Source: Thermoproteota archaeon
GTDB taxonomy: Archaea; Thermoproteota; Thermoprotei; Gearchaeales; Gearchaeaceae
NCBI GenBank assembly: GCA_041640715.1
Contig: JBEPZU010000001.1
Location: forward strand, 132,816-196,815
DNA length: 64,000 nucleotides
Reading direction: 5' to 3'
Part shown: piece after piece, positions 47,996-51,917 of the stretch
Position numbering within the stretch: position 1 is the stretch's first letter
Layout of the letters: each line of letters starts with the position of its first letter
Position numbers and translations under genes: made by a program
Notes under the pieces: model-generated
Database searches by the model: none
Told to the model about the DNA's origin: nothing
What the model saw: the letters and a program-made list of their open reading frames with translations, nothing else

Positions 47996-48928
47996 ATGAA
48001 AATTTTAGTTACCGACCCTATTTCTTCAACTTTCTTTGAGCTTATTAGGAAGGATGGTTTTGATGTTGTATACAAGCCTTATATAGAAAGGAAAGAACTT
48101 TTGGTTGAAATAAGGGATAAGGATGCTTTAGTTGTTAGAGGTAGAACTAAAGTTGATAGAGAAGTCATAGATCATGCAGAGAAAATCAAATTGATAGTTA
48201 GAACCGGGGTTGGTTTAGACAACATAGACCTAGAATATGCTAGAACAAAAGGGATAGCAGTATTCAATACCCCTGGCGCTACTTCTAATGCTGTTGCTGA
48301 GTTAACAGTTTGTTTGATCTTAAGTTTACTTAGAAGGGCTTACTTAGGTCATGAAGCGCTTAGAAGAGGAGAATGGATAAAGAATAAGCTAATAGGTTTT
48401 GAACTTAAAGGAAAGACTGTTGGTATTCTAGGATTTGGAAGAATAGGTTATGAAGTGGCTAAGAAACTCAAAGCCTTCGATTGCAGGATAATCGCTCATA
48501 GTAGGACTGATAAAAGTAAATTGGCTAATGAAATAGGGATTGAGTTCTCTACAGATCTAGATTATTTATTGTCCAACTCGGATATTTTAACTGTACATCT
48601 AAGCCTAAATCCTTCTACTTACTTATTCTTGAATAAAGAAAGACTGGCTAAATTGAAGAAGGGATCTTTTATAGTCAATACTTCTAGGGGTGCTATAATA
48701 GATGAAAAAGCATTGTTAGAGCTCATAGAATCAGGACATATTGCAGGAGTTGCTCTAGATGTATTTGAAAAAGAGCCTCCAGATACTGAAGTCGAGAAGA
48801 AATTGATTTCGATGGATAATGTAATAGTTACTCCTCACATAGGAGCTCAGACCAGAGAGGCAATGGAAGAGGAAGCAAAGGAGGCTGCGATGATTATATC
48901 AGAATTTTTTAGAAAATTAAAATACTAG
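47996..48928 (+). CDS. D-isomer 2-hydroxyacid dehydrogenase (SerA-like, no ACT domain)
   Basis: GVGLDNID, AVAEL, GILGFGRIG, VNTSRG, ALDVFEKEP, TPHIGA. Confidence 0.9.
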   Translation: MKILVTDPISSTFFELIRKDGFDVVYKPYIERKELLVEIRDKDALVVRGRTKVDREVIDHAEKIKLIVRTGVGLDNIDLEYARTKGIAVFNTPGATSNAVAELTVCLILSLLRRAYLGHEALRRGEWIKNKLIGFELKGKTVGILGFGRIGYEVAKKLKAFDCRIIAHSRTDKSKLANEIGIEFSTDLDYLLSNSDILTVHLSLNPSTYLFLNKERLAKLKKGSFIVNTSRGAIIDEKALLELIESGHIAGVALDVFEKEPPDTEVEKKLISMDNVIVTPHIGAQTREAMEEEAKEAAMIISEFFRKLKY

Positions 48929-48946: not shown

Positions 48947-49393
48947 ATGGGTTTAGCGAAATATAGAAAACTGGTAAAGAAGGCATATGAAAAAGAGCTG
49001 AGAGAAAGGCTAATAGAATGGAGGAAGCAGCCTGCTGTAGTTAAACTAGAAAGGCCTACGCTAGTATATAAAGCTAGGATGTTAGGGTATAAGGCAAAAC
49101 AGGGAATAATAGTTGTTAGAGTCAGAATTAGGAAAGGTAAGATGTCAAAGCAAAGACCTAGAACAGGCAGAAGGCCTAAAAGAATGGGTACTACTAAATT
49201 GACTTTGAAGAAATCCCTTAGATTGATAGCTGAAGAAAAAGCCCAAAGGAAATTCCCTAACATGGAAGTTTTGAACTCTTATTATGTAGCAGAGGATGGA
49301 ATGTATAAATGGTTTGAAGTGATATTAGTGGATCCTTATAGCACAAGCATAAAATATGATAAGAATCTGAGCTGGATTTATAGGGGTGATTGA
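48947..49393 (+). CDS. rpl15e: 50S ribosomal protein eL15, C-terminally truncated
   Basis: [61 protein letters not shown]; ends before the [10 protein letters not shown] motif. Confidence 0.93.
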
Positions 49394-49829
49394 TATTTCC
49401 GTTCCAGAATTGAATTCCGAGCGTTTAGAGTTCGAAGAGCTTAGAAAGAAACTGGTAGCTTACGTCACTACTAGGACTGGAGAGAAAAGGAAAGGGAAGG
49501 GTTTCAGTATAGGGGAATTAAAGGCTATTAACTTGCCCGTAAAGAAAGCTATAAAATTAGGAGTACCTGTGGATCTTAGAAGGAAAACGAATTATGAAGA
49601 AAACATAGCTACTCTTAAAAGCATTGATTGGAATAGATACAAAACTTTGGCTAAAAAATTCCTTAAAAAGAAAAAACAACGTTGGTTTGGTCATAAGCAT
49701 AGGAAAAGGGTATTCAGGGGATTGACTTCTGCTGGTAAGAAGATGAGGGGTTTAAGGAGCCAAAAGTTAAGACATACGCATAAACATAAATGGAAGAAAA
49801 AGCAAAAAGAAAGAGAGGAAGGAAAGTAA
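49386..49829 (+). CDS. rpl13e: 50S ribosomal protein eL13 fused to the C-terminal tail of eL15
   Basis: [13 protein letters not shown]...[16 protein letters not shown] (eL13), then [19 protein letters not shown]...[12 protein letters not shown] (eL15 tail). Confidence 0.88.
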
Positions 49830-50039
49830 ATGGGAAAGATAAGCAAAGGAGTTAACTGCAGTGTAGTAGGATGTTCCAATAAAGCCGAGAAATCCCTGTC
49901 TTATGAAAGAGCTTCTTTAGCTAGCTCTTTTAGTTTTTCTTCAAAACTTAGGACGGTCTATCTATGTAAAGAACACTACAAGATTTGGAAGAAAGAGACA
50001 AAGGAAATCAGAGAACTAGAAAGAGCAAGTTGGAAATAG
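49830..50039 (+). CDS. Small basic Zn-finger-like protein (CxxxxC...CxxH)
   Basis: CSVVGC and YLCKEHY; tightly coupled to flanking genes. Confidence 0.75.
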   Translation: MGKISKGVNCSVVGCSNKAEKSLSYERASLASSFSFSSKLRTVYLCKEHYKIWKKETKEIRELERASWK

Positions 50040-51094
50040 TTGAATATTATGTAATCTTAATAGGAGACGATCCCTATTTAGCTGAAAGAGAAGTCATCTA
50101 TGCTCTAGAATCTGCAGGTTTTTATTACAATTTTCTAGGGAGGAATGGTTTAATTTTATTCATACGCAGCTTTGAAGGCATAGCTCCCTATCTTGCCTGG
50201 AGATGTGCTAAAGTTAGATATGTAGTAAGGCTTTTCTTCAAAGGTACCTTAGAAGAAATCAAAGAAATTGAGAAGTTAGATATTAAATTAGAAGGTAGCT
50301 TTGCTGTTAGGATTCATTCTTATGATAAAGATTTCAAGAAGATCACAAATGATTTGGAAAGGGAAATAGGCAGGATTTTTTACTTGAAGGGCAATAGAGT
50401 AGATCTCGAATCTCCTTCTGTATTAATATTAGGCTACATAAAAGACCGCATACTTTATCTAGGATTTCTTGAAGCTAAGAGCGATAGGAAAGCGCTTTTA
50501 TCTAGAAGACCTAGTAAGAGACCTGCTTTCCATCCTTCATCGATGATGCCAGAAAATTCTAGATTGATGGTCAACTTGGCAAAGTCACCTTTAAATGGGT
50601 TATTCGTGGATCCTTTTTGTGGTGTAGGCGGGATATTGATAGAAGCTGCCTTAATCTCAGAGCATTGCGTTGGAATAGATATAGATGCGAACATGATTAA
50701 GGGATGCAAGGAAAACGTTCGCTATTATCATCTTTATAATGTTGATTTGGTAAGAGGCGATGCCACAAAACTTCCTTTAAGGAGAGTTGAAAGCATAGCC
50801 TGTGATACTCCATATGGAATTGCTTCTTCTTTGAAAGGAAGGAGCCATGCTGATCTACTCAGAGAATTTCTAGAAGGAATTAAGAGCTATGGTAAGATGA
50901 GGATCTGCATTGCTACTGTTGAAGAAAAATTAGAGCCATTAGGATACAAGATAGTATTAAAACATCCTCAAAGGGTTAGGAAATCATTAATAAGGTGGCT
51001 TTATGTTTTAGAATTGGATGATGGAAGTAATACTCCTAGGAACAGCGGCGAGCAAGCCCACAAAGCAGAGAGGCCTTCCTTCTATAGCTATTAG
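50030..51094 (+). CDS. THUMP-domain tRNA m2G10 methyltransferase (Trm11-like)
   Basis: THUMP (SFAVR, EREIG, VDLESP), RPAFHPSSM, DPFCGVGG.LIEA, DTPYG; start set to TTG 50030. Confidence 0.87.
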   Translation: MEIVEYYVILIGDDPYLAEREVIYALESAGFYYNFLGRNGLILFIRSFEGIAPYLAWRCAKVRYVVRLFFKGTLEEIKEIEKLDIKLEGSFAVRIHSYDKDFKKITNDLEREIGRIFYLKGNRVDLESPSVLILGYIKDRILYLGFLEAKSDRKALLSRRPSKRPAFHPSSMMPENSRLMVNLAKSPLNGLFVDPFCGVGGILIEAALISEHCVGIDIDANMIKGCKENVRYYHLYNVDLVRGDATKLPLRRVESIACDTPYGIASSLKGRSHADLLREFLEGIKSYGKMRICIATVEEKLEPLGYKIVLKHPQRVRKSLIRWLYVLELDDGSNTPRNSGEQAHKAERPSFYSY

Positions 51095-51917
51095 AATAGA
51101 TGGTGACATATTTTTATTTGATTGTGGAGAAGGTACTCAAAGGCAATTATTGAATGCAGGTCTAAACCCCAATAAGATAAAGGCCATATTCATATCGCAT
51201 TTACATGGAGATCATTGGTTTGGCATCGCTGGACTGATATGGAGCATGGGCTTAGATTTAAGGAGAGAAGACTTACACGTTTATGCTCCTAAAAACTTCG
51301 AGGAAATATTCAATGTCTTGGATAAAGTCATAAATCCTTATCGTCTTTATAAGGTCGTCATCCACGAATTAAAGGAAGGGAAAATATATGATGATAAAAT
51401 AGAAGTTAGTGCTATCAGAGCTAAACATAGTGTGGAAAGTTATTCATTTAGGATAAAAGAAAAGGACAAGCCTCCTAGAATATTAAAGGAAAAGCTCAAA
51501 GAATTGGGTATACCTGAAGGTCCTCATTTGAGGAAACTCAAGAAGGGCTTATCCGTGAAGCTTAAAGATGGAAGGATTATATATCCTGAGCAAGTTTTGG
51601 GTGAGCCTGTTAAAGGAAAGGTGGTAGTCTATACAGGCGATACAGCTCCCAATGATGATTTGATAAGCTTTGCAAGCAATGCAGATTTGCTAATCCATGA
51701 AGCTACCTTCGGAGATGCAGAAGAAGCTCTCGCTAGAGAATCTAAGCATTCAACAGCTAGGGATGCTGCTAAGATAGCTAAGAAGGCTAACGTTAAAATG
51801 TTGTTGTTAACCCATATGAGCGCGAGATATACTAATCCAGATCAACTGATACTCGAAGCAAAGGAGGAATACGAGAACGTCATTGCAGCTCATGACTTCT
51901 TTCGTATTCAGCTTTGA
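51018..51917 (+). CDS. rnz: Ribonuclease Z
   Basis: LGTAAS.PT..R, FDCGEGTQRQ, SHLHGDH, exosite GIPEGP, YTGDT, HEATF, HST, THMSARY. Confidence 0.95.
   Translation: MMEVILLGTAASKPTKQRGLPSIAIRIDGDIFLFDCGEGTQRQLLNAGLNPNKIKAIFISHLHGDHWFGIAGLIWSMGLDLRREDLHVYAPKNFEEIFNVLDKVINPYRLYKVVIHELKEGKIYDDKIEVSAIRAKHSVESYSFRIKEKDKPPRILKEKLKELGIPEGPHLRKLKKGLSVKLKDGRIIYPEQVLGEPVKGKVVVYTGDTAPNDDLISFASNADLLIHEATFGDAEEALARESKHSTARDAAKIAKKANVKMLLLTHMSARYTNPDQLILEAKEEYENVIAAHDFFRIQL

Follow-up and report, generated by a model that had tools for sequence, protein, structure and literature searches.

How firmly is the tail of a ribosomal protein bound to its carrier? Ribosomal proteins rank with the most conserved proteins, and a long tail is commonly regarded as an invariable component of the protein that bears it. 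The question is raised by a locus of a hot-spring archaeon in which the reading frame for eL15 ends early, and the frame that overlaps its end begins as eL13 and finishes as eL15. We analysed it within a stretch of 64,000 nucleotides (the window) from a metagenome-assembled bin of 1.24 Mb, in 46 contigs and 90% complete. A preliminary description of this DNA had read the first frame as an eL15 that ends at residue 148, and the second as an eL13 followed by a Lys-rich linker and the eL15 tail, and both sequence and profiles agree with that. In our interpretation, the locus is very probably a working two-gene ribosomal operon, in which eL15 stops past its globular body and the coupled second gene encodes an eL13 bearing the old eL15 tail, following an ancient transfer that would have arisen by local duplication and loss. 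Here the tail changed carrier and became fixed in a whole class.

Two overlapping frames and their parts

Table 1. Features of the locus and its surroundings, in window coordinates.
Feature	Coordinates	Strand	Basis or remark
Probable giant surface subtilase, 2466 aa	40564-47964	+	known domain at residues 203-539 only (Peptidase_S8); hydrophobic C-terminal stretch
TTAAAATA, archaeal TATA-box-like element	48917-48924	+	23 nt 5' of the eL15 ATG; read from sequence
ORF1, eL15 without C-terminal tail	48947-49393	+	ATG start, 148 aa; Pfam/NCBIfam and PDB chain match; same break point in relatives
ORF1/ORF2 overlap	49386-49393	+	GTG at 49386, ORF1 stop TGA at 49391-49393; junction of the translational-coupling type
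ORF2, chimeric eL13-eL15 tail gene	49386-49829	+	GTG start, 147 aa; Pfam, NCBIfam and PDB matches, class alignment
eL13 core, ORF2 residues 29-79 (...PVDLRRK...EENI)	49470-49622	+	NF008914; PDB eL13 chains
Variable Lys-rich linker, ORF2 residues 80-99	49623-49682	+	poorly conserved alignment columns; pLDDT 57-75 in model
eL15-derived tail, ORF2 residues 100-147 (...HKHKWKKK...)	49683-49826	+	PF00827 positions 143-189; tblastn to intact tails; alignment
Small protein, CxxC...CxxH, 69 aa	49830-50039	+	begins right after the stop of the eL13-tail gene
THUMP + RMKL-like methyltransferase	49985-51094	+	3' of the ribosomal genes; syntenic in the order
tRNase Z-type metallo-beta-lactamase	51018-51917	+	3' of the methyltransferase

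The product of ORF1 ends in ...LSWIYRGD, five residues past a conserved Trp. It is an eL15, matching the Pfam family Ribosomal_L15e (PF00827) with an E-value of 9.3e-57 and 192.2 bits (cut-off 27) over profile positions 10-151 of 191, and the NCBIfam eL15 model (NF003269) with 217 bits (cut-off 178). Coverage of a full-length eL15 by one polypeptide was not found, positions ~150-190 of the profile being absent from ORF1. Judged from these matches, ORF1 is an eL15 without its last ~45 residues. The location of the break, 2-6 residues past the conserved Trp, is shared by every truncated eL15 that we examined. The TATA-like element upstream suggests an operon transcript with a short leader or none.

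ORF2 lies in the +1 frame relative to ORF1, which it overlaps by 8 nt. It matches Pfam Ribosomal_L13e (PF01294) with 35.2 bits, above the gathering cut-off of 24.9, and the model for the short archaeal eL13e (NF008914) over positions 23-73 of 83 (5.4e-17, 61.2 bits). It stays under the 96-bit equivalog cut-off of that model and does not give a near-full-length match, and the match is likewise under the cut-off in 39 of 41 relatives. Residues ~26-90 align with eL13 chains from many of the ribosome structures in the PDB. Further along, residues 94-139 match Ribosomal_L15e positions 143-189 with 30.6 bits (cut-off 27), so that the Pfam families fall on the two frames as the preliminary description had expected. 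The tail match is more than an effect of basic low complexity, because a tblastn search with residues 96-147 recovers the C-ends of intact eL15 in five outgroup genomes, at 72-83% identity and with E-values from 5e-6 to 7e-15. When a single 194-aa eL15 chain from the PDB is used as a ruler, ORF1 aligns to its residues 12-149 (E 7e-49) and the tail of ORF2 to residues 145-175. On the evidence of such matches ORF2 joins an eL13 core, by way of a Lys-rich linker, to the C-terminal tail of eL15. Across 12 members of the class, tail residues R108, F110, G112, T114, A116, G117, R121 and G122 are invariant, and the linker varies. Precomputed Pfam hits place both families on 12 of the 13 nearest protein clusters; public records name these chimeric proteins plainly 'ribosomal protein L13e'.

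The region of the break is present twice. Where intact eL15 reads WICEKQHRGRVF, ORF1 has WIYRGD and ORF2 holds a second Trp-containing copy. This second Trp, on the ORF2 side, is retained by the window only and was lost in the other members of its family.

The preliminary description had also taken both frames to be intact and translationally coupled, and the junction bears this out. In relatives the second gene starts with an ATG located between -4 and +1 nt from the eL15 stop (TAATG, ATGA, TAAGATG), and stop and start abut or overlap in four genomes. A strain variant seen in a public DNA run has substitutions at 49410 and 49412, which turn the TTG of ORF2 codon 9 into GTA and remove an alternative TTG start.

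In five relatives from the order, the 69-aa protein encoded immediately downstream has kept its position, as part of a conserved string of genes. It belongs to no Pfam or NCBIfam family, and its nearest Atlas clusters are unnamed archaeal proteins of 69 aa. A serA-like gene is kept 5' of eL15 in one Thermofilum-type genome; in five outgroup genomes, neither the serA-like gene of the window nor its genes for the Zn-ribbon protein and the THUMP methyltransferase were found near eL15 or eL13.

Distribution of the tail and of the gene order

We searched 301 genomes of the phylum, 45 of them from the window's own class, and separately 41 close and class-level relatives. All 45 class genomes have exactly one match to the tail, situated away from the match to the N-terminal part of eL15, in a frame of 147-255 codons that is not eL15. 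Of the 41 relatives, 39 have the eL13 core directly upstream of the tail with the reading frame unbroken, and the remaining two gave no eL15 or eL13 hits. Full-length matches carry the names Caldivirga, Thermofilum, Thermoproteaceae and Thermoproteales, the nearest ones being 'Candidatus Geoarchaeota' and two SCGC single-cell crenarchaeotes. From these source names we take the class to be that of the Thermoproteales, the Thermofilales and the NAG1/'Geoarchaeota' group. The transfer of the tail is old and fixed throughout the class as sampled. It is a lineage trait and not, as the preliminary description might be read, a peculiarity of a single genome; several Bathyarchaeia-labelled lineages carry the tail on eL13 as well.

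The ancestral state is seen in five outgroup genomes of the Desulfurococcales/Sulfolobales type: eL15 is intact and tailed (215-223 aa), and a short eL13 of 77-96 aa lies hundreds of kb away. At the other extreme, no tail was detectable on any protein in 138 of the 301 phylum genomes. In the examples that were checked eL15 ends near profile position 148, and these are cases of tail loss, not of transfer. The tail is thus dispensable in some ribosomes, and the earlier idea that the ribosome keeps the same peptide does not amount to a universal need. Outside the window's order, eL15 of the class (L134, L136, L138, L009 and others) ends in an unrelated basic stretch of 30-50 residues, for instance ...RRRIMRRLRERQKK....

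The side-by-side arrangement of the window has a much narrower distribution. Within the class, truncated eL15 and eL13-tail lie next to each other only in the window's order (NAG1/'Geoarchaeota'), where we found the same gene pair in nine of 12 genomes; one other has the two genes at the ends of separate contigs and two gave no hits. The nine are differently titled records and include single-cell assemblies. In the other families of the class adjacency was found in none of 29 genomes, the two genes being separated by 12 kb or more of the same contig in 17 and on different contigs in 12. A related order exists in family f20, which belongs to a second class with Bathyarchaeota/Bathyarchaeia source names on its proteins: there eL15 is intact and, in 10 of the 10 genomes for which both coordinates are listed, a short eL13 on the same strand follows it after 45-85 nt.

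Fusions of eL13 with the tail also occur in 13 Bathyarchaeia-labelled genomes (families f51, f55, f57 and f64, and genus g157 of family f12), as proteins of 101-129 aa, and eL15 is truncated in the six of these that were checked. Family f12 contains, besides fused members, one with a short eL13 and a tail-less eL15, a mixture that hints at later loss of the tail. In ten of the 13 genomes (L146 and L151-L159) the eL13-tail gene stands directly 3' of uL13-uS9. We considered this site as the ancestral location of eL13 and rejected it, because uL13-uS9 was not within ~1.5 kb of the short eL13 in three intact-state genomes of other families of that class (G320, G086 and G318), and this context was not found in the window's class. 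A second split eL15 suspected in genome G108 was likewise discarded, as it is a contig break inside an intact eL15.

How the tail may have changed carrier

We propose that the ancestor had the order [body-tail][eL13], as family f20 still has. A tandem duplication of [tail-spacer-eL13] would have given [body-tail][eL13-tail][eL13], with the second copy of the tail in frame behind eL13, and loss of the first tail copy and of the second eL13 copy would have left the order of the window. In the other orders of the class the genes would later have dispersed, adjacency being the original state. We read adjacency in this sense on the grounds of the mechanism and of the deep position of NAG1, which is placed as a deep branch of the Thermoproteales by Guy et al. 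(2014), as cited in PMC5671600. The duplicated Trp region is in line with a duplication, though weakly, since other members of the family lack the second Trp. Because eL13 is far from eL15 in the five outgroups, the precursor order eL15-eL13 is represented by a single family, from another class.

The main competing explanation, and the one favored in the preliminary description, is that eL13 was brought in from a distant locus and inserted within eL15 just 5' of the tail, splitting eL15 and capturing the tail in frame. The order of N-terminal part, eL13 and tail is exactly what an insertion predicts, and the outgroups do keep their short eL13 at a great distance from an intact eL15. However, an insertion demands the precise in-frame entry of a promoterless gene of 250 nt, and the break region, with its Trp, is present in both frames of the window. 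Moreover, the intact-state family f20 already has the two genes adjacent in all its genomes with coordinates, which offers a simpler local route and makes a local exchange between tail and eL13 at least as likely as an insertion. Of the original proposal it stands that the eL15 tail is now on eL13; that eL13 inserted into eL15 does not stand as stated, and we consider it possible but rather unlikely.

Duplication and loss in an eL15-eL13 operon may also have happened repeatedly. In a comparison of the distal tails, 13/13 tails of the class best match the long intact eL15 tails of the Desulfurococcales/Sulfolobales type. Among 12 Bathyarchaeia-labelled tails, of which two were too short to score, seven (three of them tied) best match the short intact eL15 tail of family f54 of their own class, with low scores on short tails. 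This suggests that the Bathyarchaeia-labelled fusions and those of the window's class may be independent transfers. A quick IQ-TREE phylogeny of the N-terminal part of eL15 and the eL13 core (40 genomes, 237 columns) is compatible with a single origin or with several: six of its 37 inner branches are starred, and the window's family sits on a long branch (0.89) beside f20 with weak support (82). As a tentative scenario, to which we give somewhat less than an even chance, the tail would have passed to eL13 at least once in the ancestor of Thermoproteales, Thermofilales and NAG1 and at least once inside Bathyarchaeia, each time by tandem duplication and loss in an eL15-eL13 operon; the order of the window would then be a living fossil of the intermediate order, and some lineages would have lost the tail later.

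On our reading of the locus, eL13 and not eL15 would now supply the ribosome with the rRNA-binding tail. A solved structure speaks to this. The eL13 of the Pyrobaculum calidifontis ribosome (PDB 9E6Q/9E71/9E7F, chain AH, 157 aa) aligns to ORF2 residues 35-144, tail included (E 1.9e-17), and the eL15 chain of the 9E6Q entry (189 aa) aligns with ORF1 only to residue 141. Chain AH of 9E6Q is also the top fold match of the model of ORF2, and the transplanted tail is ordered in a ribosome, since coordinates were built for 155 of the 157 residues of this chain. The window, with eL13 core and eL15 tail in one frame and a truncated eL15 in the same genome, is of the same type. For ORF1 and ORF2 themselves, a complex prediction gave an ipSAE of 0.54 (0.54, 0.54 and 0.19 in the individual runs), against 0.00 for the best of three controls. 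Of 80 solved complexes 58 reached the mark it passes, as did two of 110 mismatched pairs; of these, only seven of the 80 and both mismatches did so at or below 0.60. Partner pLDDT was no lower than 72, and agreement among the runs covered at least 20% of contacts, although the pass may reflect a memory of solved ribosomes. The predicted contact between the two proteins thus lends weak support.

It could also be that the tail borne by eL13 serves another purpose or binds elsewhere and has ceased to replace that of eL15. The large share of phylum genomes without the tail (138/301) could be understood in this way, as could the unrelated basic C-end of 30-50 aa that Thermoproteales-type eL15 has gained. 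Still, an 18-residue core of the tail is nearly identical in intact and transplanted tails, which argues for the same rRNA contacts and makes a change of role improbable.

More remote is the idea that the two frames are rejoined, either in the RNA, by removal of eL13 as a bulge-helix-bulge intron, or in translation, by a programmed frameshift that yields an eL15-eL13-tail polypeptide. The position of ORF2, in the +1 frame and across the stop of ORF1, is what could raise this idea, but we find it highly improbable. Splicing would remove the only eL13 of the genome, and the predicted fold of positions 49340-49730 (391 nt) has a z of +1.53, with 96 of 100 shuffles folding at least as well and the junction regions not paired together. 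A conserved frameshift is excluded because three genomes have an offset of +1 and two of -1. The second gene of the relatives has its own ATG, the pair is non-adjacent in 29/29 other genomes of the class, and the solved eL13 of P. calidifontis is one chain that includes the tail.

Finally, an assembly artefact or a decaying pseudogene, which a fragmented metagenome-assembled bin (46 contigs, 90% complete) could bring to mind, has practically no likelihood left, given that the same arrangement recurs in nine genomes of the order, single-cell assemblies included, that key residues are conserved, that the 90%-complete genome holds no second eL15 or eL13 sequence, both being single copy, and that a separately assembled Logan contig (depth ~130, from a public DNA run that may be the source sample of the window and so does not count as independent) crosses both junctions without indels. 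The search of public runs for this stretch listed that one DNA run and no RNA run.

The transfer among known ribosomal proteins

The preliminary description knew of no described case, and our full-text search of the literature, which covered main texts, found no account of a transfer of the eL15 tail to eL13. Term searches of the main texts of PMC3353972, 10.1101/2021.01.31.429008, PMC9932298, PMC7804294, PMC3082918 and PMC3553981 returned no description of it, and eL13 and eL15 are not named in the main text of the report on the P. calidifontis ribosome (bioRxiv 10.1101/2024.11.12.623245).

The consequences are practical as well as conceptual. For annotation, an 'L13e' of 105-160 aa and an 'L15e' of ~150 aa are not errors or fragments in these taxa, and where ribosomal proteins are concatenated for trees, a stretch of eL13 is homologous to the tail columns of the eL15 alignment. 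The combination of a truncated eL15 and a long eL13 is a molecular marker for the class and for parts of Bathyarchaeia. It also offers a natural test of whether an rRNA-binding tail can function whatever the body to which it is attached, an idea that can be examined in 9E6Q, since this solved structure contains such an eL13. The gene order that explains the transfer survives in one order, that of the window.

The closest known counterpart of ORF2 is the P. calidifontis eL13 (9E6Q chain AH), which has the same succession of core, linker and eL15-type tail (...HNYKFKKK in P. calidifontis). The two proteins differ in their N-terminal extension, and the distal tail is shorter in ORF2; unlike in the window, the eL13 gene of Pyrobaculum-type genomes is not next to eL15. 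The short crenarchaeal eL13e (NF008914, 83 positions) shares with ORF2 the core GRGFSxxELK...VDxRRK...ENV but has no eL15 tail. In the canonical eL15 of archaea and eukaryotes, such as that of P. furiosus (4V6U) or S. acidocaldarius (8HKU), both parts belong to one polypeptide, whereas in the window they are distributed over two proteins.

We know of no parallel for a segment moving between two neighbouring ribosomal proteins. Segments of ribosomal proteins have been repartitioned between genes in other cases, with the parts kept, as in the fusions of ubiquitin with eS31 and eL40 or in the split rpl2 of plant mitochondria. The difference with these cases is that here the segment has moved to a different, neighbouring ribosomal protein.
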